From Takakia lepidozioides (Eukaryota > Plantae > Bryophyta), in NCBI GenBank assembly GCA_030704615.1, contig CM060731.1:71424001-71488000 (forward strand): a stretch of DNA of 64,000 nucleotides. Reading direction: 5' to 3'. How positions within the stretch are numbered: the stretch's first letter is position 1; every line of letters begins with the position of its first letter. Of the stretch, positions 28,371 through 64,000 are shown piece after piece. The notes under the pieces were generated by a model. It saw only the letters and a program-made list of their open reading frames with translations, had not been told where the DNA came from and did not search any database. Made by a program: the position numbers and the translations under genes.

Positions 28371-29480
28371 TGTATTGCCGATTATTTCTTCTATGGAAAC
28401 AATATGGGGGCCAACGTCTTCACTTTTGTCTTCTAAATACATGATGATCCTCCAAGCACTATTCGGTTGTAGAAGCTGCACAGGTCATACACGTTGCACG
28501 GATGCACGAACGGTGACAAAACATTTTTGGGGACGATAATGAAGGGAGGAGGACGATAGAGAGAGGTCGACCATTACTTGGGCGACAGAAATTATCCGCT
28601 ATAGGAGGTGCAATGATTCATTTTGAACGGCAACGTCCATCCAAAAAAAAAAATCAAATCTAGATTTTGAATGTCATGTGTGACCATCCATGTATGACCA
28701 TGTGTCCATAGCATGGTCATGATGTAATGGTGGTGTTACATGAAACATGTACTACAGGCATGATGGATGATTGTGCTATACTTATCACTTCATCCACGGA
28801 TTTCAATCAGCATAAAACAGAATCTACTCCAATATAATTTGGACTAACCACTAGAGTCATCAAACTGTCAGATTCTGGATCGACGGTTGAGTCAGTTCTT
28901 CCCATACGACGGTCTTCAGATGACCCCGTCCGTAGCCGCGGATCAGAGAACTTTGGATGGTGGCCGTTGCTGCCTAATCCTTTGAAATCCAAAATTCCAC
29001 TCAATGCTTTCCTCCTTCAGATATTTGAAGTGTTTCTGGATGTGGGTTTTTCCTGGGTGCAGTGTAAGATGTCAAAAGTGATTGCATAGAGACAGGATGT
29101 GTCTCTACGCTTTGCATACCAGTGTGCTATTATCACTGAAGTGAGAAGCAGCTCGTTGATTGCCAGTGTTGGGCTCAGATTTCTTCGAATTGATGGTGGG
29201 TTTATGGTAAGCTCGACTCCCACAAACAATCAAACCTTGCGTTGAGGTTTGCAAGGGAGTGGCACAGACCGCAGCAGCTGGGGAGCCAGGAATTGTTACA
29301 ATGCAGAGAGAGGAATTTGAACCTCGAAGGTATTGAGAGCTCATGCTTTTGTTTAAATGAACAAATGTTGGTGTGGATAGCACCAGCTAGCAGACAATTA
29401 ACCTGGGAGCTCAAGATTGGAGAACCCAGTGAAGAAACGAAGGGGTACTGGAGGGGCAGGGCGTTGCCCCCCTACCCAGT

Positions 29481-37314: not shown

Positions 37315-37639
37315 TTGGTGTTCTTCTTGACCAGTGTTTCTCTTTACAGCGGGTGTAACTGAGGCATATCTACAGTAGCACATTGCTTCCCCAGCCACAA
37401 AAAGGAAGGAGGACATGGGGTGTAGGTAACTCTTCCTTCTTTGTTGGCTCTTCGTTGCAGTGCCACCTTCCCAAGTAACACCTCCTTGGTTGTATAATAA
37501 CTGATGGAGAAGAAATGGATACCGTGGAACAGGATGAAAATTTATCAAGCTACATAGTGCATAATGATGAGTTTTTAAATGTTTTACTTGACGAAAGTAG
37601 GTGTTACTATTCAGGAGGAGACATTACACTTGTTTTTAA

Positions 37640-38423
37640 CCCTTAAAGGACTAGCTATTTTTTGGTGGGCCCACTAAAAAAGAGTATATACACTTATGGA
37701 TGGGGGTGTAACTTCTTACCCCCAATCATCCGCGGGGATGAACCTTACACTTATGTGCATATCTACTATGTACATGTCCTGTAAAAAATGTAGGCAAATT
37801 GATCATTGCATTTGGGAGATTATAACAAAATAACATGCCCCAATTTGTAAATATATTCAAAAATTGCATGCAAAAAATTGTTTGACCATAAAATTACAGT
37901 ATCGAGTTGAATCTTCCTAGACAAAGGCCCTCCATAATCTGATTATATGGCACCTAAACAACTGCCTCCCACAAAAATCAGACCAAGATTCCAGAAATTC
38001 AGATAGGCTGCCTCGTATGTGAAATCTGGGGGGGGGGTAAATTGTCATGTTTTGGCTTTCTTTCACAATTACACCCATGAGATGATATTTTTTTTCCAAT
38101 TCCTCTGGTAAGTAAGTGCCCAGTAACATTTCATAGTGCCCTGTCCAAAAAATTTGGGATTATGATAAATTTTCAGCACTAGATGTTACATTGAAGATTG
38201 CCCATTTGGCTGCCATGTAGGCAGGTCAATGGTGCTCTAACACTGGATTTTCTGACCCCTTGGCACTTTGAAAAATTCTATGGAGCAGAGCCTTTATGAT
38301 TTTTTGGAAATTCCCACACATGCTCCTCTCTGCCATCCACAATTCACATCCATCCACTATCATCCACTATCAAGTTGGAGGGTGGCAAAAAACTGACGCG
38401 ACCCGAAGACGGGTCCTTTAGGG
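37640..38423. mobile_element. piggyBac-like non-autonomous element (MITE)
   Basis: TTAA-cccttaaaggac ... gtcctttaggg-TTAA; no coding capacity seen. Confidence 0.7.
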
Positions 38424-38879
38424 TTAAAAGTGTGAGTTATGAACTCCTTCTAACATTGGCATTCAAAATTTGACTAGAAAAAATTGTGAATGGATGCATG
38501 GAGGTCTTTGAGTAATGATAGGATAGGATAAATATAAATTGGATGGACCTGACAGCCTGGGTGGCCACGTGGCCACCCCATCTCCAACGTGTGTCTGAAT
38601 GGAAAAAAATGATTTGGATGAGACCAAAAAGCAAGAAACGCTGCAGGAGCTATGGATGAGTAGGTCCGCAACTAGGGTGAGTTAAGAACTAGAGGCTAGC
38701 GCCTAGAGGAGTCAAAGGAAAGATGGGCTTTTGATTTGCCCTTCCTAAGGCACTTGTGGCGCCAGTTGACATCTGATTCTTCAGGCTCAGTAGATTTACG
38801 CTCGCTGATGGAACTGCCGACATGCCAGGAAGCCAGATAATCTTTGATTCAGAGGCTCTTATGCACAGTCTCTCGCTTT

Positions 38880-41765
38880 GCCCCTAGGAGTTATCAACCA
38901 GCGAATAGCTGCACTTGCCTTCTCGTTGAACATCTAGAAGCAGCGGCACATAAAACACGTCAGGCCTTTCTTGCTTCAGACATTAAGTCCGAGTGAACTT
39001 TATGCAACACTAGATTGGCACATGGTTGCACCGCCAAAAAAACAAAAGAACACCTGCACTTCCAAATGTTCCAAGGGTATGCGCTCTAAGAGCAGCCCAT
39101 ACCGGACAAGTGCTCCAAATTACCCGTCTATCCATGTTAAGAAGCAGCTGCACAGAATTAAGAAAAGAGAAGTCCGCATGTCGGGTCTCATAAAACTTGA
39201 TGACAACCCGCCACACGAAGGAACTCAAGGGGCACTCAAGCAGGCAATGCTCTATAGACTCAACACAATTCGAGCTACACAATGTGCAGGGAGAAGGAGG
39301 GTCCGGGATGAATGAGAACACAAGAAGAATACGGTTGACAATTTTCCAAACGAACCCACTGACTTTTGCTGCTCTATCTTTCCTCCACACTGTTGAATAT
39401 TTTATAGGTAGAGTTTAGAAGAGTAATGGGCCTATAGTTAGTGTCCGATCCCTCTCCCTTTTTTCAAAAATCAGAGCTATGATTCCTTGGGACAATTGAG
39501 AAGGCATGATGCCTTTACATAGAATGTCATTGGCCGTTAGCAAAAAGTCCTCCCCCACTTCTTGCCAGAGGACCTTAACCATTAAGCGACGAGAGCAGTT
39601 TTAGACCATTTCAACAAAAACTGGGCCCACCCTCACACGGGCCCTGTATCAGGGATGAACCGTTGCAAATTGTTCCGACCTGCCAGATGCACAACCACCC
39701 CAAAAATGGGCAAATTCCACCCTTGGATTTGAGATAATATAACATATGAAGATGGTACATTTGCTGCTCAAATTTACCTTTGACCAAGCCCGTGGGCTAT
39801 GTTACATGTTTGGTGGGTGAATGAAAGCCATATTCCATTGCTTGGATACATCCCAAAGCACACGTCAAAATTTCAGGTGAAATTGACAAGAATAAGGTGG
39901 GGTTGCTTTGTATGTGGATGGGGAGGGGCTCAAAATGGGTAATTTGCAAATCAGATGCTGGAGGTTCTAAAATTGTTGGCCAAATTGGAATGCCAACGGT
40001 CAGTGTGAGCATGCCTACATTGAGAGTACAGTGGCAAAAAATCAAACAAATTGGAGTAAAAATGGTGATAAGATGGAGGATTTCCTGCTTTTCCCGGCCA
40101 ACTTCAACTCCGGCATATGTTGCCGGATATGCCACCGTGAACGCATTCTGGGCCACTCCCTCATGTTTGCAGGGCCAAGTCATTCAAACCGCCATCATGA
40201 AAGGGTGAACATGCACCCGTGCCTCATCACCCCCACATGGCCCCCTGCTGCAAACCCCTGCCGGATTTTCCATAGGCGCCTGCCACGTCGCCAGTCAACC
40301 TACGTGGGCCCCCAATCCACCCAAAAGTGCAGACCCCCATGCTGGCAAAAATCGCTGACGGCACAAAAATAACTTTTTCCCCGGCGCAATCAAGGCGTGC
40401 GTGTAGAAGACATTGTGGCCTACATTATTCATTCAGGTTGGCCCTTCATCGGAGTTCATCCGGCGAAGCTACGCCTGGATGAAAGCGTGACGCAGCGAGG
40501 AAGCGACCCGATTCGGGTCGCTTCGTCGTTTAGGGGTTAAATTTGAAAGAGGCCAGAGCCTCAGTATCCTCCAGGAGCTCAACAGCAGAGAAGGGAGCAT
40601 CTAGGACTAGCAGATCGTCATTAGAAAAGATCCTAGGTACAGCTTCTAGCACAAACAGTTCTATGAGCGGATATAGCTTCTAAAGAGGACGGGCGAGAAA
40701 AGAGATCCGTGAAATAAGAGGCCGCAACAGAGGCCATGGCTTTTGGGCTTTCTTGGGGAATATTCATCCGGTCACGAAGTGAGCAGATGGAAGTAGGTGC
40801 CTGTCTCTGCTTGGACTTTTGAAAAAAATAAACGGTCATCTTTTTGCCTTGGTGGGACCAATTAACCCCCGCCTTTCTTTTCATATTGACCTCTTTGGCA
40901 GATCGGAGCTCTGCCAGATTTCTCTTGGCAGTATGAAAAAAATGCAAGGTGACTGGACCTATAGCACGAGTCTCCATGAGACAGTGAGAGATGCATTTAA
41001 GCAAGACTTTTTCCATCCTAGACTTGTCAAGGGCCATCGATCTAGAAAGACTTTGAGCCAAATTTCTAGCAGCAGCGAGCTTATGCAAAAATCCGGTGGT
41101 GGGAGAAATAAATGAGTTACCCGACTCCTTTCAAGCCCTAGCTAAATTTTGCACCATGAGGGGAGACTGGAGAAGTTGCGGATTTAACTTGAAAAAGCTT
41201 CTGCCTCTCCAGTTAAGCTCCGGAGGCTTGAGCTCAAGAGAAACCAACGCATGATCAAAATCAGAATGGGAGGGAGCAGAACCGGGGAGGCCCAAGTTGC
41301 AGCATTAGGGGAGCAATAAAATCTGTCCAACCTAGCCATGCAAAGATCTGGGGGGTTTCTATTATTGGACCAAGTGAATCTGAGGGACGAACGATCGAAT
41401 TGAAAAGAATCCGAGAGCCCTACAGAGAAATAGAGTCTGTCCCAAGCAGAATGTTCCTCCACAGAAAGAGGTTGTGAAGACGAACCCATCCTATCAGCTA
41501 AACAATCCACCATATTAAAATCTCCACCCAAGATCCAGTTGTTGACCTGCGGATTGTTTAGGATGTTAGTATGAATTGAGGTCCAAAACTCAATACGATC
41601 AGTAACCAAATTAGGAGCATAGATATTAATGAAAGCAGTGGAGCCGAATGTAGAGGAGGGCTTAGTGAAGACACATTGAGCTCTCCCTGGAATCTATGAG
41701 TACACTCTAAGGAAAGACAAAGCTAAGGAAGGAGCAATAAGGATGGCAGTGCCACCTCTAGCATC
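38880..41765 (-). mobile_element. Degenerate L1-clade LINE (APE, linker, zf-RVT; RT core largely missing)
   Basis: WILGGDFN, FTWSN..ARLDRFY, YFFQKSK, CTLC..ESIEHCLLEC; boundaries approximate. Confidence 0.82.
39579..40536. mobile_element. Second piggyBac-like MITE, inserted in the L1
   Basis: TTAA-ccattaagcgacga ... tcgtcgtttagggg-TTAA; excision restores an L1-like frame FKFKVLWQEVGED. Confidence 0.72.
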
Positions 41766-42660: not shown

Positions 42661-43244
42661 GAGTGCAGCTACGACGTGAGCCTAGCCACGTGAGCCCAAG
42701 AGCTCGGCTCACGCTTTGCCCTCTAAGCGTGAGCCCAGGGGTTTAGTGGAGGAAGAAGCAGGCCCCATACCCGAGTCATCTGTTTAGAGAGGGTCCTATT
42801 GTCGTGGAAGCAGTTATAGCGCTTAAAAAAAGAGGTATAGAAAGAATGGAATGGTCATTGTGAAACTTACTGAGGTTTTCTTATTGAAGAAGAGGTGAAA
42901 AAAAAAGGCTGGGTGAGTTGTTAAGTTATTTTACCACTAGTGTGAAACTAGCTAGGAAATAGCTAGCTTTTACATATTGACATTTGGGATTGGCCCAAGT
43001 GTCAATCCAGGGGTCAAGGCAGATTTAGGCCCTGGAGTGGTTATCTTCACGGCAAGCGCGGAGGCTCATCTTTCTCGAGTTGAGCCTCACCGCGCCTAGC
43101 TATGGCGCCGTAGTGTGGATTCCCCATGGCGTGGGGTGCACTTGGCTTGACTTGTATTTGAGTGATGAGGTTATATATGCATGAGTTTATGCTTCAGCTT
43201 TGTGAGCTCGCATGAGCTTGTGCTTGTATTCTTCTTCTTTATCA

Positions 43245-43260
43245 CTCGAGAAAGATGAGC
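43245..43260 (+). promoter_or_regulatory. Putative self-priming primer-binding site
   Basis: ctcgagaaagatgagc directly after the block A terminal CA is the exact reverse complement of 43064-43079; lacks the TGG of a tRNA PBS. Confidence 0.75.
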
Positions 43261-44769
43261 TCGTATCTGTGAGTGCCAGATACGAGTTAGTTGTAGCACT
43301 TGTGGTTTTTGCTTGAGAATGAGAGAAACCAAGTTGTTATGCAAGGAGCACCGTGGAGCTCTTGGTTGTTAGAAGCGGAGGCGATGTGGGTTACGAGGTG
43401 GTAGACCTTGGCATTCGATCTTCAGCTTCAGAGATGAAAGCACCATGCTGCAGGTAATTCCAGAGCACCTTGATGGTTTCAGATTGTGTACATGCATGAG
43501 CAAGCACGATTGGGAAGGACCAGTCAAGAGCAGGTTATAGTGGCTTTGGTGGCAAAGCTGAGAACTGGACTTGGGAATGCGAGCTTTCATTGTGTGAAGG
43601 ATTGCAAGACCAAGCGAAAGGGCTGATTTGGCTTGGGGCAAATCAGTGCACTTGTGGAGTATGGTGAGATTGGGTTTCAATCTCGAGCTTCAGCATTGAG
43701 AGGGCTCTTGTCATGGCAAGAGCAGGGCTGGAACAGGAGCTAAGAGGTGCGGCAAGGCCATGGAATGTGCACCTAGGGTTTCAGAGCTTGGAAGAAGAGC
43801 TCTTGCACCACAAGAGAAGTGTCTTGTGGCTGGAAATGTAAGCCTTAGGGTTTCAGGAGCTTGGCAAAGGCTGTGGAGTGCTTAGTCTTGTCTTAGAGAG
43901 CATCAAGGAGCCAAGGAGCCAAGATAGGGGGCTGATATCTCTTGTGTGAAGAGGTTGCATGTGTGGAGCATGTATTCAGCTCATTGAAGCTTCCATCTTC
44001 AAGCTTGGAGGGCAAGCAAGGAAGAGGGAAGGGCTGACTTCCCTTATGTGAGGGCAATGCATGTGTGGAGCATGCTATCAGCCTGGTGAAGGCTTGCACT
44101 TTCAGGTGTGGGAGTGCAAGAAAGGAAGGAAGGGGCTGGTTTCCCTGTAGGGCATGTGGAGCATGCTTTCAGCCTGCTGAAGCTTGTATTTTCAGGTTTG
44201 TGGGTGCAAGAAATGAAGCAAAGGAGCTGATTCTCTTATGGTGAGAGTGGGGCATGTGTGGAGCATGCCTTCAGCCCATTGAGGCTCTTGTTTTCAAGCT
44301 TTAGAGAGCTAGAACGGAAGGTCTAGGGCTGGTTTCCACTTGGAGTGAAAGAAAAGCACTTGTAGGGCCTATGTGAGTTGGGGTTTCAACTTCAAGCTTG
44401 AAGGGAGCGCAACTCTTGAAGCAGCAGGTGTAGGGGCTGGAATAGGCTCTAAGACAGATGCTATGGCCAAGGAGAGTGCTTGAATGAGTGCTCACAAGGG
44501 CTGGGAACCAGCAGGGCTTGGTTGTTTTTGCCATTGAGTTTAGTGGCGTGTTTGGGGAGGCTAAGTGAGAAAGAAGGCTTGGTTTGTGGCAACCACCTCA
44601 TGGCTTAGGGCTACTATGGTGGTGTGTGGGAGCCGAAAGAGCAAGAATACCTTGCTGATTTCCTCACAGCCGCCATAGCTCGGTGGAAAGAAGCCTAGAG
44701 TCCAAGAGACACAAACCCTAGCTTGGCGTGGCTAAACCCCTTGGAAATGGCTAAACTGCCAGAGCGGCC

Positions 44770-45320
44770 ATGGATGGGGCCAGGGGCTGGATGGCCTGGG
44801 GCTGTGACGGGCGTGAGGGCTGACGGGCTGTGATGGGCTGTGACAGGCTGTTGGCCTGGGCTGTGGGAGGCCTTTGGGCTGTGACGGGCTGTGAGGGGCT
44901 GTGACAGGTGCCTGTGGCCTTTGGGGCTGTGAGGCTGTGAGGGGCTGTGATGTGGCACGGGCTGTGGGCTGTGACAGGCTGGTGGCCTGTGGGGCTGTGA
45001 GACTGTGAAGGGGCTGTTGTGTGGGGCTGGATGTGACCGGGGCTGTGACAGGCTATGGCCTTTGGGCTGCTGTGAGGGGCTGTGACAGGCCGTGTGAGGC
45101 CTTTGGGCTGTGACGGGCCTGTGAGGGCTGTGGGGAACCTGTTGGCTGTGTGACGGGCTGTTGTGACAGGCTGTGCCTGATGGGCCTGTTGGTCTGTGCT
45201 GTGGAGACTGTGTGTGACAGCTGTGCCCAGTGGCCTGTGGGACTGTGACGGCTGTGACCAGTGAGCTGTGTGGGCCTGTGCTGGTCTGTGGTGGCCCGTG
45301 TTGACCTGTGGACGGCCTGT
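44770..45320 (+). repeat. GGCTGTG(A)-rich simple repeat in the Gypsy leader
   Basis: Dozens of ggctgtga/ggcctgtg motifs. Confidence 0.9.
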
Positions 45321-45989
45321 GCTGACTCGTGGAGGCACTGGTGGACTGCCTAAGGACTGGCATGTGGTCTGGAAGCCGAATTTTGAAGCTCGTGGAGGGG
45401 TTGAGGAGTATCTTCATGATATCCATGGTCATGCAAGTGAGGAAAGAGAGGAGAGGAAGAGTGTTGGGATGAGGGCATGCTGGGGTTAGGCATTGCTTTA
45501 GCTTCTCTTCCTCGTAGTTTCCACCCTCTCATTAGGCCAAGACCTTTCCGTAGGTGGAGGCAAGAGTCAGTCCGGGTTTGGGCTGGGGTGTCCTTGCAGG
45601 AGCAACACCGTGGAGTTGTTTTTGGTGTGGGGGAGTTGTCGTTCTGATTTCTTGTGTTTGGATCCCCTCCATACCTGCATGCTTGACTGTGCGCCATGCT
45701 AGTTTTGTGTGGGCGCTTGTTTTTATAGGTGATTGGTCCGGATTTGATCACCGGCCAGTCCTAGAGCATGCTGTCGATGGTGAGGCTGGGGTGATGACCA
45801 GCCAGACCATCATTGTTTCTCCTGTGGTGAGGTTGGAGGTGATGACCAGCCAACCATAGGAGTGCTTGCGGTGGATGCAGGTACAGGTGTAGGCTATGTT
45901 AGGAACTTAGTATTCCAAACCATAAGCCGCAACAGGTTCTCTACCCGGTTACCTTGTGGAGAGGGGGTTAGGGACATGTTCATGACCGG

Positions 45990-48500
45990 TTGAGTGTCAA
46001 CACGGAGGTGCCACTAGTTGCTGGGGACAGTGCCGGTTCGAGCACTAGCGATACTAGTGGGTACACGAGACGAGGTGTGCGGTTTAGGCCACCTTCACCT
46101 CCTGTGTCTTCGGAAGGTTCTGATTCGGATTGTGAATCAGGAGGACTCATACCGGCGGTGCAAGTTGTTTCTTTGCCATTGTTGTGGGACACAATGGAGG
46201 AGATGTATGGAGCTACCAAGGGGCCACGAAGGTACTCTGGGGCGGTGGGCACCATCGAGTTGGATGATTTTATCCAAGAGTTTGATAGTTGGTGTGATTT
46301 GCAGCAAATGCGCAATCCACAACTATTTACGCCTTTCATGGCATGGAAAGGGCTGTTTCAGCACCTTGAGGGGCCGCCTATGGATGATTACCATGAGTTC
46401 AGGCGGGGGCATGAGGTTGAGATCGAGGAGTGGAGGATGTACTGGTCACCCGACTATGTCTCCATCACTAGGGGCACTAGAGCCACGAGGGCAGTGGCTA
46501 CACCTGCCGCTGCACCGGCAGCTTCAGCAAGTAGCAGTAGTGGACTGGTGGTACAGTAGCTACGACGTCCACCCAAGCCACTACCGCACCAGCACTAGCA
46601 CCCGTGCCTGCCTTCAACCCTGTTGGAGTTCTTCGAAGAGTTGAGAGGGAACTACCAAGGGGTGAGGACAGAGAAGTTGCGGAGCTTGCAAGAGTTCCAA
46701 CGGAAGCCGACCGAGAGCTTGAGGGAGGCTTTCACTCGCATGAGGCGCTTGATAAATGTAACCCAAGGGGTTACGGAAGCTCAGGCAGTCCAATTCTGGT
46801 ATGGGATATTGGACAAGGAGCTGAGGAGAAGGGTGCGGGATGCAACTCTCCTACAAGCGGCCCAACCCACCTTAGCAAATGTGTTTTTGCTGGCAGAGCG
46901 GATAGAGCTCAACATGGTGGAGGAACGAGTGGTCATGGTGGATTTGCTAAGGAGACACCACGGGGTAGTGGTGCTCCTAGCCAACCACTACCTCAACGTG
47001 CTCAAGGCAACAAGGGGGCTCAGGTGAAGCTCAGGGAAGGGCAGAGAGGACCTCAGATGCAGGGGTCTCTCCCTTCATTTGCTGGCCAACAACGGGCGGA
47101 TGTGGTGTGCTGGACATGTGGGACCCCATGTCAAGAAGGATTGCCCAGAGGGAGGCAAAGGGCGGCACATGCACAGCCTGCACAGTTGCAGTGTGGGCAT
47201 TGTGGCAAGCACGGGCATGGAGAGGCCCAGTGTTATGGTTTGCATCCTGAGTTGCGCCCAGGCCAGTTCCAAGGGAACAATGGTGGCCGGGGGCGAGGTG
47301 GAGCAGCCCAGAGAGGACGAGGTGGCCAGCCACGAGGCCCAAGGGCAAGCTCAATGGCCAAGGACGCGGAGGTCAGGGTGTTGACCAAGGCATGGCCAAC
47401 CGGCTTCAGCAGCTAGAGCAGAGGCTCGCTGCCATGGCTACAGCTCAGGTGGTACCGGCTCTAAGGCCGGATGGTCCACCTCCTGCTCCTGAGGGAGGAG
47501 AATATGGGAGGCATGGGATTCATGTGTGGAGCAGCACTACCACTAGTGCAGGTGGAGTCTGCTGCAGCCGTGACTCGAGGAGCAGCACGAGTTCCTGAGC
47601 CACGAGGTGCAGAGGTGGAGTTGGATCCACAGCGTGGGGAGGCAAGCCGTCAGGCTAGGCTTCCTCAGTCATTCACATTGGCGGAGACAGTGTCGACGCC
47701 ATCCATGGCACCTAGTTCTCGCCCGACTGTTACCGAGGCGGAGGTTACTATGCCATTGGGGAGAGCTACACGGGTAGCACCACTACCTAGTGTTGCCAAG
47801 GCTACGGCAGCTAGTGTGCTGCTAGGAGCGGCCACATCTGTGTGCCAGGCTCCATTGTTCTCGGCTACCATGATTGCGACGCCGGGGTAAGACCAGCTGA
47901 GGTGTTCAGGCTGGCAGCTACACTCTGTGAGAGTGGGGAGGTTACTTCATCTTCTGCGGAGATAGTGGGAGGTGTAGTGCCGGAGGGATCCTCGGATTTG
48001 AGGGTCAAGACTGCCACGGCGGCGCCATGGCAAGCTGCAGCTGCCAGGTTGATGGAGCTGCCAGCTAGGCCAGCCATTGAGCGCGCCATGGTGACACCTG
48101 GAGTTGTCATGTTAGACAACCAGGATGGCATTTTCTGTTTGAGTGGACCGGCAGGCAAGAGGTACCGGCCACTGCGGGTCTTGTTGGACTCGGGAGCTCA
48201 GCCATGATGCTGGGCAGAGCTGCTATTGCAGGCTTGGGCCTCACGGAGGCGGATATGGAGCCTTGTCCTTTCCAGATACAGACGTCTCTGGGAGGATCGG
48301 AGCAGGCTCGGGGCATGACACGGCGTGAGTTGGCTATCAGACTACGGCCGGATCACCCTACAGATGGCTCAGTGATGCGAGCCAAGGCCATTGTGACAGA
48401 CGCGTCTCATACGATGTCCTGGTTGGTGGGGGCAGTGTTGTACCCCATGGGCTTCACCCTGGATTTTTGGGAGGAGTCAGCTTCCTATAGGCCTGCATGG
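45990..48500 (+). pseudogene. gag (zinc knuckles) and aspartic protease, frameshifted
   Basis: FQRKPTESLREAFTRM..FWYGIL, CGHCGKHGHGEAQC, VLLDSGAQP. Confidence 0.85.
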
Positions 48501-48894
48501 CAGTCAGGGGAGGGCCGGCGTGTGCAGCTCCCTGTGACGTTCATAGGAGGAGTTGCGGTTGCCCAGCGAGGCAAGATGCCGACACTAGCAGCATTCACAG
48601 CGGCAGTGAGTTGGCCTAGAGAGTTGCTTGAGGGCAATGCTCATTCAGAGGATGTACCACCTCCGGGAGAGCAGGATGACATGTATGGTATGGCGGAGTT
48701 GCCTACCATGGTTGCTCAGACTCCATTGTGGGGCACGAGCAAGGATTTGCAGCGGGATGCTGATCGACGGGTGCAACAAGCCTGGGTGGAGGCTTTTGTA
48801 CCGTCAGGAGAGGAGGAGAGTGTGGGGATTGCACCAGGACCACCTCAATTGTCTCCATTGGACACCACACCTATTGTGTGGCAGTATCCGGATG

Positions 48895-49850
48895 AAGGCA
48901 TTTGTCTTCTGGACTTGTTTGGCGGGATCAGCACCGGATTGGCTGCTGTGTTACAGCAGGTGTACGAGTTCGGCGTTACCTGTATGTGGAGAGGGATGAG
49001 ACTGCACGACGCGTTTCACTTCGCCATGTTGCTCAGTTGGCAGCGGTACCCTGAGTTGTTGTCGGTGTCTGCAATTCGTGGATATCAGCAGGCCTTGCCA
49101 GCAGACATTTCGTTGCTGGGGGCGCAGGATTTGGAGCGGGTTGGCTCCATTGATCTGGTAGTGGCAGGTTGGCCCTGCCAAGGGCATTCATCAGCCGGGC
49201 ATGGCAATGGATTGCGAGACTCGAGGTCGGGTCTGTTTTGGGAGATGGTGCGGGTTTTGCGCCACTTGCAGCTTCATCAAGCTGTATCTCCAGCATACAT
49301 CTTGGAGAATGTGCCACTGATGGGCGATTCTCGGGCCAGGGTGATGGCCAGTGTGCATCAAGTCCGGTCGTGGCTTGGGTCAGCAGTGTTGCTAGATGCA
49401 GCTACAGTGGGGTCACGGCTCATCGTCCACGGCTATGGTGGACTAACTTGATGCCACCCGCACTGCTCAAGCGTGCATTTGATGGGGTGCAGCGGCCAGC
49501 ACATCTCACAGTGGATAACATTCTGGACACAGGGAGGCAGTCTCAGCGTGTGAGACACGATGACCGTTCGCCTTTGGCAGTGGTCAACAAGGTGGGTCAA
49601 CCACGAGCAGCATTACCTACACTGCTCAGCTTCCCAGGATCGCATGCTTTCCGGGATAGTGGACCTGGCCTCCTGTGGGATGCTCAGTTGCAGCAGTTAG
49701 TGGAGCCTAATGCTGACGAGCGTGAGCGGGCAATGGGTTTTACCACTGGTACCACGGCGGTGTCGTCTCTTTCTGAGGCATCACGTCGTCAAGTGTTGGG
49801 GCAAGCAATGGATCTCAATTGCTTGACCTGGATTATCAGCTTGGCTCTGG
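48895..49850 (+). pseudogene. DNMT3-like C5-cytosine DNA methyltransferase domain inside the retrotransposon polyprotein (frameshifted)
   Basis: Motif I LDLFGGI, II YVERD, IV VVAGWPCQG, SGLFWE, VI ILENV, VIII AHRPRLWWTNL, IX ERERAMGF, X LGQAM, in canonical order. Confidence 0.92.
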
Positions 49851-50143
49851 CTGAGCAACGCAGAGTGCGGAGTACACTTCCCTCAATGGTCTCTCTGCCT
49901 ACCGAGACGGTACAGGCAGTGAGTGGGGGCGAGCATGTGAGGACCACGGGGTGCATGCATCCATGGCACACGTGGGAGGTGCTCGAGGTTCAGAGGGAGT
50001 TGGCAGCCAAGGCGGCTGTGATGGATGAGGTTGGGGATTCTTCTCGGGTTGAGGAGGTCCTCAAGGATGAGATGATGGGGCAGGATGAGGCCTTGTCATT
50101 GACTGAGCAGGCAGGGAGTACTGCTCAAGAGGTTGCAACATAG

Positions 50144-53100
50144 CAACCACTGGACGCGTCCTCTACCTCTAAGCCCACTGGACTTAAGGTTGCAGTTACG
50201 GAGGACAATTGGGAGCCTGACATTGGACCCATTGTCACCGGAGGAGAGAGACGACGTATACGGCGGTTCCTGAGGGCTTACAGGAATTGCTTTGCCTTCA
50301 GTTTGAAGGACTTGGGAGCACTGAAGGGTCAAGAGATCCGTATTGAGTTGGCCACTGACACGCCAATCTTTCGGAGACCCTATAGATACAGTGACATGGA
50401 GAGGTCTTTGATTCAGATGAGGACTCAAGATCTCTGGGAGGCAGGTTTGGTGGAGCTCTCTGGTGGAGAGTATGCTTCAGCCACAGTGATGCCAGCCAAG
50501 AAGGATGTCTATGGCAATTGGACGGAGAGACGTATGTGCGGTGATTACCGGCCCTGTAAATCGTCAGACCAAGTCCGATAAGAGTATGCCATGCCAACAC
50601 CAGAGGAGATCTTTGATGCCATCGGGCATGCTAAGGCCTTTAGCACTTTGGATTTACGATCCGGATATCACCAGTTGCCAATCAAGGAGGCGGACAAGCA
50701 GAAGACGGCATTCTGGGGGATCAATGAGCACGGCAAGGATTGCCTATATCAGTGGCGGTTCTTACCATTTGGGCTTAAGAATGCTCCTGCAGAGTTTCAG
50801 AGAGTCATGGATAGGATTCTAGCAGGGGTGGACTTTGCTCGGTGCTACATAGATGACATCATCATCTTTAGTGTTACGATGGAGGAGCATGAGAGACACC
50901 TTCAGGTGGTATTGAGCGCTTGAGAGCGCACGGATTGAAGTTGCATCCGGGGAAGTGCAAGTTTTTCCACAACCAGATTGAGTATCTGGGTCACATGATA
51001 TATCCTGGAGGATTGGGGTACAGCAACTAAGGTAGAGGCCATTGCACAAATTCCACGCCCCACGGATGTGAGCCGAGTTTGAGCTTTCATGGGGTTGGCA
51101 AACTATTATAGACGGTTTGTCAAGGGATTTAGTACCATTGCAAAGGCTCTAACCAAGCTGACCAAGGTGGACCAGGAGTGGCAGTGGGAAGATGAGCAGA
51201 ACGAGCTTTTCAAGAGCTCAAGGCGAGGTTGACCTCGGCGCCTATCTTGAGACGACCTATCAGGGGGCGTCCCTTTCAGCTGCATACGGATTGGAGCATG
51301 CTGGGGCTTGGAGCGGTGCTCACACAGGTGGATGATGAGGGAAGAGAGTTTGTAGTGGCTTACGCTAGCCGCTCGAACAACGTGCAGAGGCTAAGTACAG
51401 CTCATATGAGGAAGAGTGCTTAGCTGCAGTGTGGGCCGTGGCACACTTCAGGTGCTATCTATACGGCAATCTTTTCACCCTTGTCACGGATCACCAGCCA
51501 CTCAAGTGGTTGATGGAGTCAGACAAGCTTACGGGGAAGCTTGCACGGTGGGCACTTATACTCCAGGAGTATGACTTTCAGGTTGTGCATCGACCGGGTT
51601 TGGTCAATCGGGATGCGGATGGATTGAGTCGCAATCCATGCATGAGCCAGCAGGATGACACTGGAGCTCGGTGGCATGGTGAGACGGACGAGGAATGGTG
51701 TCGGGATGGCATGCATCTGCATTTTTGTGTATCTTGGCATCGGGAGGTCAGATTGGACCTACAACAGGGATGACTGTAGACGGAGTGTCTGAGGACCCTG
51801 AGGCTAGTGATGAGCTAGGTGGTGCCAGAGATATACATGAGGATTCGGCTGTGTTGGACTACCTCCGCACGGGAGACACGGCAGCCATTGTGACTGCCAG
51901 GGAGAGGGATCGGATCCTGCAACGAGCCAAGAGGTTCAAGTGGGAGGGGATACACCTACTTCGAGTGTGGGAGGATGGTTGGGTGAGGATTGTGCCTCAC
52001 CCCACACAGCGTGCACGGTTAGTGCGGCATGCCCATGAGGAGTTGGGGCATTTTGGAGTGCGACGCACTCACAGTTTACTGCAGGGGCAGTATTGGTGGC
52101 GTGGTATGCATACAGAGGTGCAACAGTTCGTGGCTAGGTGCATGGTGTGTGACAGGGTGCGTGCTTCATTCAACGCCCCTACACCACAGTTGCATCCTTT
52201 ACCAATCATGGGATTGGGCTATAGTGGAGTCTTGACTTCGCAGGACCGTTGCCACTGACTATGCGCCACCACAAATATGTGTTGGTGATGGTGGAGCACT
52301 TCTCCAAGTGGATTGAGTTGGTTCCATTGCCTGACAAGGCTAGTGAGGGGGCTGCGTATGCATTCTTGGATCGTGTGCTTAGCCGATTTGGTGCTCCAGC
52401 TGAGGTACTCACGGCAAGGGAGAGAGTTCTTGGGGAGTTTCAGGCTTTGTGTGATAAAGCCTTGATAGACCACCGCACCACTTCTCGGGATCATCCTGAG
52501 GCCAATGGCTTAGCAGAGAGAGTTGTTCAGACGGTGAAGAGGGGTTTGCGCAAGTATGGCTTGCAGAAGGGACACCTAGGAGATTGGGATCTTCAGGTTC
52601 CTTGGTTAGCCATGGGCTACAGGTTCAGCAAACAAGCATCACTTGCCTCCTTCTCACCATATTTCCTTCTCTTTGGCCGAGAGCCGATTTGCCTGCAGCC
52701 ATTCGTAGGAACACTGCTCAAGCCCTTAACCTTGACGACCCGGACGTGTGGGTACGTGCTTGTGATCAGCGTGCAGGGTTGTTTAAAAAAGTCATGCCCA
52801 TGGCTTTTGAGAACCTTGCCATTGCACAGCACCGTGATACGTTGAGGTATGCACTATACGTGGTGGAGGATATCGTCCTGGGGTTCGGAGGTTTAGCCCT
52901 GGTGACTATGTTTATTTGCAGCAGACTGCTCCTACGACTCTGGATGTTACTGCAGGGCGTGTTATTCTGAGGGTTCGAGAGGTGTTGCCCTCAGGGGTCC
53001 TGATCTTGAAGGGTCGGGATGGCATGACTTGGAAGGACCATGTGCGTAATTGTGCGCCATGTCACCTTCCCAATGTCGATGGCAGAGTTGACCCAAACTT

Positions 53101-53267
53101 GGCAGTGGTACCTGCAGGTTTGAGGTGCATGCTCTGTGGGTCTGCCAAAGGGGCAGCCACCATGCTGGTGTGTGATCGATGCTCAAGGGGTTGGCATATG
53201 GGATGCTTGACACCACCTTGAGAAGGTTCCTGACGGAGATTGGTTGTGTCCACACTGCTTGGGATAG
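50144..53267 (+). pseudogene. pol (RT-RNaseH-integrase-PHD) of copy 2, many frameshifts
   Basis: Colinear with 1-3070; YIDD, TDWS, HEELGH, AER, PHD. Confidence 0.93.
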
Positions 53268-53879
53268 TGGCAGTGGACATGACTGGAGGCAGCTAACAAG
53301 ACATGGGAGGCCAAGCTCATAGGAGTCAATACATGAGATCCCAAGCTCAAGTTCACAGGTTGCAAGACGGCGACTAACGATGGGGCAACTCTTGCACCCG
53401 GCCTCTTGATCTATCGAGTTTGAGTGTAGTAGGATAGCGGTGGAGGACTTAGTGAGGCTATGGTCACTATCACATCTTGTGGCTACCTGGACTTAGAGGG
53501 ACCTAAGCACCAGCTAGGGGGGCGATTGTGTGGACTAGTGACTGCCATAGTGGGCAGCATAGTGGCAACCTAGTGACTGACTAGTTGTAGCCTAGTGGTT
53601 GGACTAGTGGTGGACTAGTGGTATACTCGTGTGTGCTGTGCACATGTGTTGTGTGTTTTGCACATGTGTTGTGTTGTGTGCACAGAGTCATCATGAATCT
53701 TATTTAGGGATTATTGCATGAACAAGAGGCAAGAAAAGTTTGGATGCTCATTGTCAAGCTATCTGACGTTCCCAGTATTTCATCCATGGTGGATGGATGA
53801 TGGATGGATGAAATATTGAAGGAGAGGTTAAAAATAATGAGGATGGGCAAGAACAGGCCCCAAAATATGACCCCTCATT

Positions 53880-54980
53880 GTGAAACATGCAATGGTTTTT
53901 GTTAATGTAGATGAGGTGAAAATTAAACAGATAATCATCTTCAAGCTTATTTAGGCTTTGTTTGTGAAGAAGATGTGTAACAAAATGAGCGGTTTATTGT
54001 GGAACTTGTTCAGGTTTGTGTTATTGAAGATAAGGTGAAAAAAAAACACGTGGTCATTGTGATTGCTTATTTAGGGTGTGTTTGTGAAGAAGAGGTAAAA
54101 AAAAACATTGAGCTATCCTTGTGAAACTTGTTTAGGATTCTGTTATTGAAGAAGAGGTGAAAAAAAAAGTTAAGCTCTATCATTGTCAAACTTGTTCAGG
54201 TTTCTGTTATTGAAGAAGAGGTGAAAAAAGAAATCACATGGTCATTATGAATGTTTATTTAGGGTTTGTTTGTGAAGAATAAATTGAGCTCTCATTCTCA
54301 AACTTGTTAAGGTTTCTGTTATTGAAGAAGAGGTGAAAAAAATATTAGATGGTCATCATGAATGCTTATTTAGGGTTTGTTTGTGAAGTAGAGGTGGAAA
54401 AAAAAGTTGAGCTCTATCATTGTCAACTTCTTCAGGTTTTTGTTATTGAAGAAGAGGTGGAAAAAAAAACCAGATGGTCATCATGAATGCTTATTTAGGG
54501 AATAAATTAGGGATTGTTTGTGAAGAAGAGATGAAAAAAAAACATGAGCTCTACCATTGTCAAACTTCTTCAGGTTTCTGTTTTTGAAGAAGAGGTGAAA
54601 AAAAAACAAATGGTCACCATGAATGCTTATTTAGGGTTTGTTTGTGAAGAAGAGGTGAAAAAAATTGAGCTCTATCATTGTCAATCTTGTTCAGGTTTCT
54701 GTTGATGAAAAAGAGGTGAATAAAAAATCAGATGTCATCATGAATAAATTAGGGTTTGTTTGTGAAGAAGAGGTGAAGAAAAAACTTGAGCTCTATCATT
54801 GTCAAACTTCTTCAGGTTTTCTGTTATTGAAGAAGAGGTGAAAAAAAAACATATGGTCATTATGAATGCTTATTTAGGGTTTGTTTGTATAGAGGACGGG
54901 GAAAACAAATGAGCTGTCATTGTGAAACTTGTGCCTGTTATTCAAAGAAGAAGTGGAAAAAAAACAAATGGTCATCATGA
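53880..54980 (+). repeat. AT-rich tandem array, ~60-65-bp subunits alternating as ~123-bp dimers (gaagaagaggtgaaaaaa core)
   Basis: Alternating ggtcatcatgaatgcttatttagggtttg and gagctctatcattgtcaaacttgttcagg linkers; one unit also at ~42853-42907. Confidence 0.92.
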
Positions 54981-55307
54981 AGCTCATTTACGCAATGCTT
55001 CTGTAGAGGCCGTGAAAAAATAAAATGAGCTTTCATACTGACACTTGTCCATATTTGGCAAGCCCTCCAATTTTTTTTTTTAATTTTTTTAATTTTTGGG
55101 GCCCGGGGCAATATTGCGGGTGGGGGTAGAAGTGGTGTGCGTTGACGCACTCAATTTTAGAGGCTCGTTAACCAAACCCGATGAAAAAATAAACTACATT
55201 TCATAACGAGACATCGTCTGCTTGTCCAGATTTAAGAACTGTGTATACATGTTCTACAAACAAGGCAGCCGTTTCTGGCATTGCGAAAAATCGCAACATA
55301 TGCAACA

Positions 55308-55880
55308 CTACTCGATATTGCCAATGTCTTGCTGCAAAAATGTCCGTACTTCACCAGGACCTAGTGTCGCCTGGTGAATGATTTGGTCTCTTTTGGGATC
55401 ACAATACATCATGCGCAAAAAGATGTAGTAAAGATGTTTGCAGGGAACCCATTTCCCTCTCTTTCCTAGAGCTTCCTCACGCATGCACACGAAGTCGGGA
55501 CAGGTACACCCCGGAAAATTTCCCACCGACACCTGATAGGCCCTGTCGTGCAAAACAGACCCAGATGTGAAGTATAAACCCGTCCATACCCAGGTGAAGG
55601 TACTTCCATAGTTCCTGTTACCCGAGCCTGAAGTAGTCTGGCCGTTCCACCTTCGCATCGTGATCAGGCCCCAAAGCCACCTGATGCACTGTTTTGTCAT
55701 TCCTTCTTGTGGGATGCGAAGTATCGTCAAGAGGAGGCACCATAGCAGCAAGGCCACCAAGAGTCGAGGCCACAGATCGGTGCAGACGAAAGCCGGCGTC
55801 CTCCAACTTGCCCATCTCCAGTTCGTCAAGGATCATCCTGAAATCATGATCATGAAAAAATTGAGTGTGTTGACGCACTC
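55308..55880 (-). pseudogene. MULE-2 transposase C-terminus (SWIM)
   Basis: YQVSVGNFPGCTCPDFVCMREEALGKRGKWVPCKHLYY, paralogous to 4556-5269. Confidence 0.88.
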
Positions 55881-57409: not shown

Positions 57410-58330
57410 TTACTCACATGAAAAGTCATTGTCCAGGTCTTTGTCGTCACCGTCGAGGATATCAATTTGCGTAGTGACATCCTTGACATTGGAGGTAGAC
57501 GCGCCCCCTTGCAACTCGGCAAGGAGGCCAGTGAAAATATCTGCATCTCCTTCCATACCAAACAAGTGCCTGCCATCTACCTTGCAAGCATGGTAAGAAG
57601 CGCCTGCAAGAGACAAATTGAAGGAATTAGAGTTTTAGAATATTGAGTAAAGAAGGTGTAAAAGAAAAGAAATCGATGACAAAGGCAAGAAGAGAAACAT
57701 GTGCCGAGAGTGAGATCTATGATGCGGGCCCCTGGCCGAGAACAACTCTAAATGTTTTTCTGGATAAAAGCCGGGTTTTTTTCACGGGCCCCTCTCCAAG
57801 GCGTTCCATTTGGCTTTCGCAAACATACGTTGGAGTCGACATAGTTGTAGTGCATGTCATCGACGACAGGATCGAACCTCTCGTTTATGAAACATCATCC
57901 CCCATGAAGCTCAAACTCCACCACTATGGTGGGAGTCGACAGCGGATGTACCCTCACGAGACAGACGGCCTCAAATAGACGGGTCTGCGATGAAGAGGAC
58001 AATAATTAGTGAGGAATGTTTCATAGCACATCTGGGTGGGAGTGCAGACCCATTCTGGATGGAACTGGTTCAGAGTCATTGCTCATGCACCGCCATAATT
58101 GAGTGCGCTGAAGCACTCAATTCAGGCAGTGCGAACAACATGACTTCATAACAGTCAGTACAGTGGAACTTCAATAGAGAAGGCATAAAAACGAAGTATT
58201 TGAAACCCACCTTCTGCCCTGGGCAAGCCCCCTTCGTCAGATATAGGCTGTTGACACAGTTCCAGGTCTTGATAATCCGCATCCCCGAGGTTTTCAAGTA
58301 GCTTGCCAGCTCCCGGCGACATCTCATCGT
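57410..58330 (-). pseudogene. C-terminal exons of the MULE-2 N4C/N6A MTase-like gene
   Basis: RCRRELASYLKTSGMRIIKTWNCVN; WRGAREKNPAFIQKNI*SCSRPGARIIDLTLGT; GASYHACKVDGRHLFGMEGD..DFSCE*. Confidence 0.85.
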
Positions 58331-58344: not shown

Positions 58345-61058
58345 TTTGAGGACTACTTCAGCCTCCCTGCAAATAGACGCAGACAAATCTGGCTCTCGGC
58401 CAAAGAGAAAGAAATATGGTGAGAAGGAGGCAAGTGATGCTTGCTTGCTAAATCTGTAGCCCATGGCTAATCAAGGTACGTGAAGATCCCAATCTCTTAG
58501 GTGTCCCTTTTGCAAGCCATACTTGCGCAACCCCCTTTTCACCGTCTGCACCACTCTTTCTGCCAAGCCATCGGCCTCAAGATGATCCCGAGAAGTGGTA
58601 CGGTGGTCTATCAAGGCTTTATTACACAAAGCCTGAAATTCCCCCAAGAACTTTCTCCCTTGGTCCGTGAGTACCTCAGCTGGAGCACCGAATCGGCTAA
58701 GCACACGATCCAGGAATGCATACGCAGACCCCTCACTAGCCTTGTCAGGCAATGGAACCAACTCAATCCACTTGGAGAAGTGCTCCACCATCACCAACAC
58801 ATATCGGTGGTGGCGCATCGTCAGTGGCAACGGCCCTGCGAAGTCAAGACTCCACCTGTAGCCCAATCCCATGATGGGTAAAGGATGCAACTGTTGTGTA
58901 GGAACGTTGAATGAAACACGCACCCTGTCACACACCATGTACCTAGCCACAAACTGTTGCACCTTTGTGTGCATACCGCGCCACCAATACTGCCCCGGCA
59001 GTAGACTATAAGTGCATTGCACTCCAAAACGCCCCAACTCCTCATGAGCATGCCGCACTAACCGTACACGCTGTGTTGGGTGAGGCACAATCCTCACCCC
59101 ACCATCCTCCCACACTCGAAGCAGGTCTATCCCCTCCCACTTGAACCTCTTGGCTCGTTGTAGGATCCGATCCCTCTCCTTGGCAGTCACACTAGCTGCC
59201 GTGTCTCCAGTGCGGAGGTAGTCCAACACAACCAAATCCTCATGTATATCTCTCGCACCACCTAACTCATCACTAGCCTCAGGGTCCTCAGACACTCCGT
59301 GTACAGTCATCCCTGTTGTAGGTCCAACCTGACCTCCCGATGCCAAGATACACAAAAAGGTAGATGCATGCTATCACGACACCATCTCCTCGTCCGTCTC
59401 ACCATGCCCACCCCGCTCCAGTGTCATCCTGCTGGCTCGAGCATGGATTGCGACTCAATCCATCCGCATCCCTATTGACCAAACCGGTCGATGCACAACC
59501 TGAAAATCATATTCTTGGAGTATAAGTGCCTACCGTGCAAGCTTCCCAGTAAGCTTGTCTGAGTCCATCAACCACGTGAGTGGCTAATGATCCATGACAA
59601 GGGTGAAGAGATTGCCGTATAAATAGCACCTGAGTGTGCCACGACCCACACTGCACTTAAGCACTCCCCCTCATATGAGCTATACTTAGACTCTGCAGCG
59701 TTGTTCGAGCGGCTAGCATAAGCCACTACGAACTCTCTTCCCTCATGATCCACATGTGTGAGCACCGCTCCAAGCCCCAGCATGGTCCAATCTGTATGCA
59801 GCTGAAAATGGACGCCCCGTGATAGGTCGTCTCAAGATGGGTGCCGAGGTCAACCTCGCCTTGAGCTCCTGAAAAGCTTGCTCTTGCTCATCTTGCTCGT
59901 CTTTCCACTGCCACTCCTGGTCTACCTTGGTCAGCTTGATTAGAGCCTTTGCAATAACACTACTTAATCCCTTGACAAACCGTCTATAATAGTTTGCCAA
60001 CCCCATGAAAGCTCAAACTCGGCTCACATCCGTGGGGCGTGGAATCTGTGCGATGGCCTCTACCTTAGTCTGCTGCACCCCCAATCCTCCAGGATATATC
60101 ATGTGGCCCAAATACTCAATCTGGTTGTGGAAGAACTTGCATTTCCCCGGATGTAATTTCAATCCATGCGCTCTCAAGCGCTCAAACACCAGCTGAAGGT
60201 GTCTTTCATGCTCCTCCACCGTAGCACTAAAGATGATTATGTCATCTATGTAGCACCGAGCAAAGTCCACCCCTGCTAGAATCTTGTCCATGACTCTCTG
60301 GAACTCTACAGGAGCGTTCTTAAGCCCGAATGGTAAGAACCGCCACTGATATATGCAATCCTTCCCGTGCTTATTGATCCCCCAGAATGTCGTCTTCTGC
60401 TTGTCTGCCCTCCTTGATCGGCAACTGGTGATATCCGGACTGCAAGTCCAGAGTGCAAAAGACCTTGGCATGCCCAATGGCATCAAAGATCTCCTCCGGT
60501 GTGGGCATGGCATACTTATCGGACTTGGTCTGACGATTTACAGGCCGGTAATCACCGCACATACGTCTCTCCGTCCAATTGCCATAGACATCCTTCTTGG
60601 CTAGCATCACCGTGGCTGAAGCATACTCTCCACCAGAGAGCTCCACCAAACCAGCCTCCCAGAGATCTTGAGTCCTCGACTGAATCAAAGACCTCTCCAT
60701 GTCACTACAGTATCTATAGGGTCTCCGAAATATTGGTGTATCAGTGACCAACTCAATACGAATCTCTTGACCCTTCAGTGCTCCCAAGTCTTTCAAACTG
60801 AAGGCAAAGCAATTCATGTAAGCCCTCAGGAACCGCTGTATACGTCGTCTCTCTCCTCCGGTGACAATGGGTCCAATGTCAGGCTCCCAATTGTTCTCTG
60901 TAACTGCAACCTTAAGTCCAGTGGGCTTAAAGGCAGATGACGCGTCCAATGGTTGCTATGTTGCAACCTCTTGTGCAGTACTGCCTGCTTGCTCAGTCAA
61001 TGACAAGGCCTCATCCTGCCCCATTATCTCATCCTCGAGAACTTCCTCAACCCGAGAA
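58345..61058 (-). pseudogene. pol (RT-RNaseH-integrase) of Gypsy copy 3
   Basis: ORFs 60371-60949, 60013-60513, 59743-60006, 59568-59783, 58471-59355 match copies 1 and 2. Confidence 0.93.
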
Positions 61059-63378: not shown

Positions 63379-64000
63379 TCAAAAGGGAGACGGCAGCTCC
63401 AATTCATACACATCCTCATTCATAACCTTCCGAATGCGAAAGGGTCCCGCATACGGAGGTACGAACTTCGGACTCACTTCCGGAGGTAGTCGGAAATTCT
63501 TGATGTTCAACCAGACCTCTGTGCCTGCCTCAAATTTCACTTCCCTCCGCTTCCGATTCGCCTGCCTTTCATACCGTTTCCTAGCATACTTTACGAGCTT
63601 CAACAAACGCTCGCGTTCTTCCAGTACCGCCGCTACTGCCGGTTCCTCAACGTCCTGGGCGGCCCAACTTGTCGGCACCAGAGGTGCTTTTCCATAGACC
63701 AATACGAAAGGGGAAACTCCCGTTGCAGAGTGTTCTGTGTTATTATAACATAACTCTGTCGCGTCTAAGTGTTCCACCCACCCAGTCTGTTTGGTCTGCC
63801 GACACGTAATTTCCGCAAGATCTGCTTCACTACGGAATTCACTCTTTCTGTTTGGCCGTCGGTCGTAGGTCGGAAGGCGGTGCTCATCTTTAGCCTCGTC
63901 CCCATCTTCTTCCAAAGTGCCCTCCAAAATTTACTCGTAAACTTTGGATCGCGGTCCGAGACAATATCCTTCGGGACTCCATGATGCTTTAAGACGTGGG
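63379..64000 (-). pseudogene. Integrase core/C-terminus of an unrelated Ty3/Gypsy element
   Basis: HGVPKDIVSDRDPKFTSKFW, YNNTEHSATGVSPF, PPYAGPFRI..YELELP. Confidence 0.85.

Follow-up and report, generated by a model that had tools for sequence, protein, structure and literature searches.

The element and its methyltransferase domain

Positions 42919-53684 of the window, that is, of the whole 64-kb stretch of Takakia lepidozioides DNA analysed here, hold a decayed copy (~10.8 kb) of a high-copy Ty3/Gypsy retrotransposon family, which carries a C5 cytosine methyltransferase (DNMT) domain. A preliminary description of this DNA had reported a DNMT3-like enzyme between the protease (PR) and reverse transcriptase (RT) of a Gypsy element. 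The parts of the element, its terminal repeats A and B, and its further copies in the window are listed below; "P" numbers denote homologous proteins and "L" numbers metagenome loci.

42915-42918 (+): left target-site duplication, GAGT; the same 4 bases stand at 53685-53688, and a contig of run X5 fuses the left flank with 53685, the element being absent
42919-43244 (+): repeat A (TG...CA), the 5′ terminal repeat; matches 16964-17165, 3415-3591 and 3998-4140, with A-to-B joints in reads
43064-43079 (+): stretch in A, likely the 5′ end of the RNA, that matches the primer-binding site as a perfect complement of 15-16 nt, paired in the fold (z -7.7)
43245-43260 (+): self-priming primer-binding site adjoining A, with no tRNA-type TGG
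43261-46190 (+): leader of ~3 kb with degenerate short tandem repeats, seen in contigs of all four read runs and in self-matches
46191-47250 (+): Gag with two CCHC-like knuckles, frameshifted; 64% identity to the Gag of Marchantia P0006; PF03732 weak, under cutoff
48100-48530 (+): aspartic protease (LLDSG), frameshifted; tblastn against the protease region of P0006, homologs carrying PF13650; VLLDSG at ~48178
48895-49873 (+): DNMT3-type C5 cytosine methyltransferase (probable, from motifs, PF00145 and homologs), three frameshifts
50141-50149 (+): in-frame stop TAG followed by CAA CCA, the CAR YYA context of tobacco mosaic virus (TMV); position conserved in relatives
50207-51700 (+): RT and RNase H (RH); PF00078, PF17917, PF17919
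51970-52800 (+): DDE integrase (INT) with H2C2 zinc finger; PF17921, PF00665
53120-53260 (+): C-terminal PHD finger; PF00628
53516-53525 (+): polypurine tract (PPT) adjoining B, AGGGGGGCGA, conserved across the window copies and the loci
53526-53684 (+): repeat B, rearranged beyond 53659, with CA at its end; the main copy thus has the A-coding-B form
53685-53688 (+): right target-site duplication, GAGT
1-3857 (+): second copy, RT to PHD, B-A-B at its end; junction GACA-GC-TGTC at ~3412-3421
58366-61058 (-): third copy, truncated, with the TAG CAA CCA stop kept (stop at 60958-60956)
16964-17328 (+): A-B fragment, A left-truncated

The anatomy of the element is secure. The order Gag-PR-RT-RH-INT with a DDE integrase, as found by Pfam and tblastn, is that of Ty3/Gypsy elements, and so are the TG...CA ends, the 4-bp target duplication, the PPT, and the primer site. 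Read cover, which was used qualitatively and not as copy number, is flat from gag to PHD without a dip over the DNMT, and falls ~50-fold past 53646 (three DNA runs). A contig of run X12 that spans 49769-51938, a run that may be RNA, was left out of account. The copies at 1-3334 (+) and 58366-61058 (-) are ~91% identical; they start at the DNMT-RT linker or in RT and are without the catalytic domain. The A-B fragment is likely the equivalent of a solo long terminal repeat (LTR). In addition, a 320-bp piece of the element leader stands alone at 28050-28370 (88% identity to 45447-45766), and the insertion site of the main element is a tandem repeat of ~121 bp, present at 53860-55050 and 42827-42907.

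The C5 methyltransferase motifs I, II, IV, VI, VIII, IX, and X, already listed in the preliminary description, were found in canonical order at 48897-49873 by six-frame translation, although they are spread over different frames. They read LDLFGG (I), YLYVERD (II), AGWPCQG (IV, with PCQ at 49173-49181), YILENV (VI, 49305), AHRPRLWWTNL (VIII, 49418), ERERAMGF (IX, 49718), and LGQAMD (X, 49799). Because of frameshifts near 48960, 49035, and 49416 and many more elsewhere in the element, the window copy is non-functional. Its domain matches PF00145 with an E-value of 1.9e-12 (47.7 bits, cutoff 22); it is unpermuted, unlike DRM, and retains the catalytic Cys, Glu, and Arg, as in DNMT3-type enzymes. 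The homolog P0008 has DNMT3A as its best phmmer match (E 6e-12), compared with 1e-8 for the best DRM-type enzyme and 4e-3 for HhaI, and its solved relatives by sequence are, in order, DNMT3A, DNMT3B, DRM, and bacterial enzymes. A structural model of P0008 (pLDDT 88.6) has DNA-bound DNMT3A as the top PDB match in Foldseek (E 5e-19, TMt 0.84), and among the matches listed the top ones are all DNMT3 entries. Both searches favour DNMT3A, in line with the DNMT3-like identity of the preliminary description, and support the assignment of the element domain as a probable DNMT3-type methyltransferase.

With regard to the C-terminus, no chromodomain of the Tcn1/Tf1 kind was found after the integrase, where a PHD finger stands in its place. 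When the PHD finger of the second window copy was used as a query, the nearest solved PHDs were those of CHD4, PHF12, KDM5B, ATXR5, KDM5A, DPF3, PHF21A, BAZ2, and UHRF1. Such PHDs mostly read unmodified H3 tails, as does the ADD domain of DNMT3.

Relatives, known systems and selection

A search with the C-terminal half of the window DNMT returned 71 longer homologous proteins, 22 of them named (15 from Marchantia, three each from Calypogeia and Sphagnum, and one from Riccia) and with identities of up to 77%, so that the suggested extension into land plants is borne out. Several of the Marchantia proteins, encoded on different chromosomes, are full Gag-PR-DNMT open reading frames (ORFs) of 1278-1281 aa, and five of the seven checked contain all six motif strings; the domain is therefore not confined to the window copy, and nature holds intact copies in a single frame. 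Marchantia genes with an intact DNMT domain include Mp4g09160, Mp5g06330, and Mp5g06860. In metagenomes, 159 relatives were confirmed and the best 80 of them retained for analysis; the order Gag-PR-DNMT-RT-RH-INT-PHD recurs wherever the contigs are long enough, which bears out the multi-copy nature of the family. The same order in dozens of loci also rules out a nested host-gene insertion or a misassembly. At 50% clustering, 269 clusters lie below 1e-30, and the top Atlas match is a cluster made up largely of streptophyte sequences, which may be the one that the query itself belongs to.

The window element clusters with Calypogeia, Marchantia, and the L003 family, with a support of 98 in the DNMT tree (a quick method, element DNMTs only) and 96 in the RT tree (FastTree only, with long branches). 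In the RT tree, the Closterium DNMT elements and two Klebsormidium nitens RTs, which may or may not come from DNMT-bearing elements, lie further out than the window group, and all of them fall into one 52-row group (FastTree support 94, unstarred). Among the Closterium gene models, P0238, P0225, P0231, and P0243 have the DNMT directly before RT in a single ORF, with EC for PC at motif IV; these may be spliced predictions. A transcriptome sequence of Coleochaete scutata (P0173), near the bryophyte clade, holds a complete RT-RH-INT-PHD ORF. Distant relatives most often show another architecture, RT-RH-DNMT-INT-PHD (34 complete of 150, 76 with partial forms). Its members (P0070, P0092-P0113, P0115, and cluster representatives) include a protein of the chlorophyte Monoraphidium and form their own RT clade with a support of 99, which indicates that DNMT3-Gypsy elements extend past streptophytes and that the domain has moved position.

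The nearest known system is KnitGypsy-Dnmt3 of K. nitens (de Mendoza et al. 2018, PMC5890265), which, as described in the main text of that report, is likewise of the Gypsy type and carries a DNMT3-like domain that lacks introns, is not permuted, and is under purifying selection. It also has a DIRS-like A-coding-B-A-B order (PMC5890265), which is complete here in L028/L047 and is reflected in the B-A-B end of the window copy at 1-3857; this shared order supports common descent. The two differ in that the algal DNMT, RT, and RNase H lie in a single ORF (PMC5890265), whereas the DNMT here lies in the Gag-PR ORF ahead of a conserved stop, and in that the host is a land plant. SymbioDIRS-Dnmt3 of dinoflagellates is also a retrotransposon-encoded C5 methyltransferase, which de novo methylates CG in yeast according to the same main text (PMC5890265), but SymbioDIRS has a tyrosine recombinase. 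The EpiLTRs (bioRxiv 10.64898/2026.05.21.726589) encode C5 methyltransferases as well; in the available text of the preprint, however, these are sister to DNMT4 and accompanied by DAM and a chromodomain. The host enzymes PpDNMT3a/b share the DNMT3-type catalytic domain with canonical motif order but, in the part of PMC6453930 consulted, are stand-alone proteins with a C-terminal DUF3444, whereas the element domain lacks DUF3444 and lies in a Gag polyprotein. The chromoviruses Tf1/Tcn1 share the self-priming site in place of a tRNA site (PMC6317226, in the available text) and a chromatin reader at the integrase C-terminus; the element differs from them in its PHD finger instead of a chromodomain, its split repeats, and its DNMT.

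Land-plant Gypsy-DNMT3 elements were not found described in the full-text literature searched, a scope that leaves aside most subscription papers, Repbase, and bioRxiv supplements. Within it, Gypsy-DNMT3 occurs in PMC5890265 and, in passing, as "streptophytes (Gypsy-DNMT3)" in the available text of bioRxiv 10.64898/2026.05.21.726589, whose authors may, from this wording, be aware of a wider range; PMC12344493, in its accessible part, cites the 2018 report alone. The main text of PMC5890265, taken apart from Figure 4c and the largest supplement, which may bear on domain order, does not mention Marchantia, PHD, Gag, or protease. Similarly, PHD, methyltransferase, and Marchantia do not occur in the accessible text of the plant LTR survey PMC6317226, and the element type is undescribed in the corresponding parts of PMC6453930, 10.1101/2021.11.30.470311, 10.1101/2022.06.16.496473, PMC11982613, and 10.1101/363937. 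The element can be placed as a land-plant branch of Gypsy-DNMT3, marked by split repeats, a palindromic junction inside them, self-priming, a PHD finger, and an enzyme on the Gag side of a conserved stop that is likely leaky.

Selection on the domain was assessed on clean segments that avoid frameshift crossings. Between the window and its nearest families, the proportion of nonsynonymous differences (pN) is 0.16-0.21 in the DNMT and 0.13-0.17 in RT; the synonymous proportion (pS) is 0.71-0.79 in the DNMT, and no non-coding similarity to these families is left. Because synonymous divergence (dS) is saturated, an exact dN/dS between families is not obtained; pN is low at saturated pS, so the domain is not evolving neutrally, a test that the preliminary description had proposed, and purifying selection on the DNMT is supported by these comparisons. 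The catalytic Cys is kept in 66 of 69 covered loci and the motif VI Glu in 71 of 74. Several observations point the other way: the motif VIII arginines are kept in just 41/77 and 47/77 loci, dN/dS within the main metagenome family is ~0.55 in the DNMT and ~0.45 in RT, and only four of 43 single-frame full-length DNMT loci are stop-free, most copies being decayed, as is expected when decay follows insertion. The best explanation for the locus appears to be that it is a decayed member of an ancient green-plant Ty3/Gypsy lineage that bears a PHD finger and in which a DNMT3-type enzyme has been kept under purifying selection.

It is quite improbable that the domain has instead been retained for nucleic-acid binding, for a chaperone function, or for RNA modification, with DNA methylation incidental. 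Such a role would fit the many distant relatives whose motif IV reads EC and not PC (55 vs 32 of 150, by regular expression) and the inactivity of the Klebsormidium domain on yeast DNA, which the main text of PMC5890265 treats as inconclusive and which also counts against the methylating role considered below. However, human DNMT3B was inactive in that same yeast assay (PMC5890265), the closest folds are DNA-bound DNMT3A/B, and the Cys, Glu, Arg, and S-adenosylmethionine-binding motifs are conserved across lineages at saturated synonymous sites.

The stop codon and the terminal repeats

The frame of the DNMT linker ends at TAG CAA CCA (50141-50149), in frame with RT. A survey of the stop covered 59 cases with both ends present (58 loci and the window). 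In 52 of them a stop stands 14-29 codons ahead of RT, followed by CAR in 49 of the 52, compared with 28 of 745 premature stops. The DNMT-RT spacer stays in frame in six divergent lineages with differing linkers (333, 309, 270, 396, 393, and 327 nt), and the full-length ORF1 proteins of relatives also terminate at this stop. Five cases match CAR YYA exactly, which is the TMV readthrough signal with an efficiency of ~6-20% in plants (PMC2754532, PMC3441728, in their accessible text), and SIRE1 is a precedent for stop codon suppression in a plant retroelement (PMC2829016, likewise). The element thus resembles the TMV replicase in its UAG followed by CAR YYA, and the SIRE1 pol-env in having a stop that may be suppressed, and differs from both in that its stop divides Gag-PR-DNMT from RT.

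From this context, the stop is likely leaky and would be read through by ribosomes. This reading is weakened by the fact that the cases are not independent, since a single family, whose stop is followed by CAA CCC (a one-base departure from CAR YYA), accounts for 40 of the 52; by TAA in 14 cases and the lack of such a stop in seven of 59; and by an ATG within a few codons past the stop in the L003 family, L057, and L060. These start codons, in three lineages, would suit re-initiation, and pol could also be made by splicing, with no readthrough and the DNMT still in the Gag ORF. Other observations in line with these routes are that the TAG is usable as a 3′ splice acceptor, that some Marchantia gene models fuse DNMT to RT (P0010, P0025), and that the Coleochaete transcript gives a separate, complete Pol ORF. 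Nevertheless, no nearby ATG follows the stop in the window, L020, or L062, neither route needs the in-frame spacer kept in six lineages, and CAR comes after the stop in 49/52; a pol made without readthrough is held to be distinctly unlikely.

Judged by the reading frames, the DNMT belongs to the Gag ORF whether pol comes by readthrough, splicing, or re-initiation, and, with the stop separating it from RT, it would be made at the Gag level. The position between protease and RT given in the preliminary description therefore stands, while its placement inside Pol does not.

The element ends in two unrelated repeats, A and B, and not in two full identical LTRs. B begins precisely at the PPT, and A, which would hold the promoter, R, and U5, stops precisely at the primer site. 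In the window, this site is complementary to A over 15-16 nt, compared with a chance maximum of 9 in 500 random draws. Among ten loci, the self-priming match at the expected place is 9 nt in L003, L006, and L031, where the sequence differs from that of the window, and 8 nt in L043; L010 and L028 have a match at a second site, L052 has 6 nt only, elsewhere, and no exact match was found in L016, L041, and L047.

The complete arrangement A-coding-B-A-B occurs in L028/L047, B-A-B at the end is found in L011, L018, and L036, and in L003 B is followed by A as far as the locus reaches. L036 and L052 represent a single insertion that has B-A in the former and lacks it in the latter, which shows that the short A-coding-B form can arise through B-B recombination. 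The palindrome GACA-GC-TGTC at the B-A junction is common to the window and the loci, although the repeat sequences are otherwise unalignable. Besides the contig that joins both flanks without the 42919-53684 element, insertion is marked by 4-bp duplications in the window, L016, L028/L047, and L052; L041 has one as well, with a single mismatch. An identity as a DIRS, PAT, or Ngaro element was ruled out, given the rve integrase and 4-bp duplications instead of a tyrosine recombinase without duplication.

With B at the PPT and A at the self-primer site, ordinary reverse transcription would give B-A-coding-B-A. The A-B junction would then be the join of the two complementary DNA (cDNA) ends, and the integrated ends would correspond to the internal GACA-GC-TGTC, which suggests integration from an end-joined intermediate cut at this palindrome, an unusual route for a retroviral-type integrase. 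A simple circle model also predicts the mirror form with B ahead of the 5′ A (A-B-A-coding-B), which neither the window nor any of 12 independent loci shows; its absence speaks against the model and favours a directed process. The one-sided arrangement, the precision of the A-B junctions, and a repeat order like that of DIRS-type elements would also follow if A-coding-B-A-B were produced directly by DIRS/PAT-like template switches during reverse transcription, in which the internal B-A junction would serve as template for each end without an end-joined circle. This alternative is quite possible, if short of probable; on the other hand, B at the PPT and A at the primer site make A-B the join of two ordinary cDNA ends.

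Possible role of the enzyme and neighbouring features

The most likely role for the enzyme, which would be packaged, favoured slightly above an even chance from the sequences compared, is that it methylates the element's own new cDNA within the particle. A minority of ribosomes would pass UAG-CAR-YY and yield RT-RH-INT-PHD, leaving DNMT several-fold above RT, and the protease would release DNMT within the particle. Self-primed reverse transcription would make B-A-coding-B-A DNA, both ends of which would join at an A-B junction, and the integrase would cut the internal GACA-GC-TGTC to give A-coding-B-A-B. The PHD finger, being similar to readers of unmethylated H3K4, might direct insertion away from active promoters, and the pre-methylated cDNA would be protected, or new copies would enter as quiet heterochromatin. 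Because of the conserved stop, the proposed mechanism changes: instead of a single DNMT for each RT, every particle would contain many.

The TG/CA-rich look of the copies, which the preliminary description took to be consistent with heavy methylation, proved a weak sign: the observed/expected CpG ratio is 0.46 in the element, inside the 0.41-0.59 span of three non-element regions, and 0.64 in its DNMT part. Among the three window copies, C>T changes affect 17/313 CG (5.4%), 20/370 CHG (5.4%), and 60/1863 CHH sites (3.2%), with T>C at 59/2302 (2.6%), the triplet counts not being independent. CG and CHG changes are much higher in nine metagenome copies, and stand at 13.6% (CG) and 18.8% (CHG) in the L003 family. 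Neither the dinucleotide nor the mutation-context test gave an element-specific signature, which detracts from self-methylation; host silencing explains the C>T pattern equally well, so that it is uninformative on the element's own enzyme.

The same strong decay in the L003 family has been weighed for an active DNMT that acts chiefly in trans, its targets being host chromatin or existing copies, as a means of host silencing or reshaping or as a copy-number brake. Gag-level output would presumably exceed the need of one cDNA per particle, and the cis argument made for the algal element had relied on an obligate fusion of RT and DNMT, which the stop undoes. However, fusion to Gag predicts co-assembly into the particle, as is general for retroelements, and CG/CHG decay in a moss is accounted for by host MET1 and CMT in the part of PMC6453930 consulted; an action mainly in trans is considered unlikely.

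Ever since 2018, when retrotransposon-encoded DNMTs were known solely from algae that are difficult to manipulate, their role has been an open question. The present lineage is abundant in liverworts and mosses, and its intact ORFs are annotated as hypothetical genes in Marchantia polymorpha, for which methylation mutants, with de-repressed transposable elements, are available. Such elements may supply hidden de novo methylation and inflate the DNMT gene counts of bryophytes. In its fullest form, the proposal is of a Gypsy lineage that spans the green plants, has been overlooked, and escapes standard LTR finders; it would make DNMT3 at capsid level by readthrough, methylate its own cDNA, integrate by an in-LTR palindrome cut and not by its cDNA ends, and use PHD in place of the ADD of DNMT3. 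As one whole this is tentative and rather doubtful; if true, the intact Marchantia copies would make retrotransposon self-methylation genetically testable in a land plant.

The remainder of the window contains further repeats and genes. A tandem array at 9432-12274 has a spacing of ~116 bp and a higher-order repeat of ~347 bp. Transposase-like ORFs at 4559-8553 (-) and 55311-55832 (-) are two related copies without a Pfam match; they end in a CxCxxxxxxxxxxCxH motif, which we take to be of the SWIM type, and are likely a Mutator-like element. ORF pieces at 12320-15396 (+) have no Pfam match, and their end matches 57761-58321 in inverted orientation. Host-gene exons at 19422-20405 and 29433-29837 (+) are land-plant-like, with PF00383 weak and under cutoff, and presumably belong to chloroplast MATE transporter-like and riboflavin PyrR/RibD-like genes; together with the closest relatives in liverworts and mosses, they make a bryophyte host likely. 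Decayed long interspersed nuclear elements with endonuclease, RT, and zf-RVT occupy 33500-41700 (-), and a further Gypsy element has its end at 63382-63930 (-), where a Tf2-type SH3 domain scores under cutoff.
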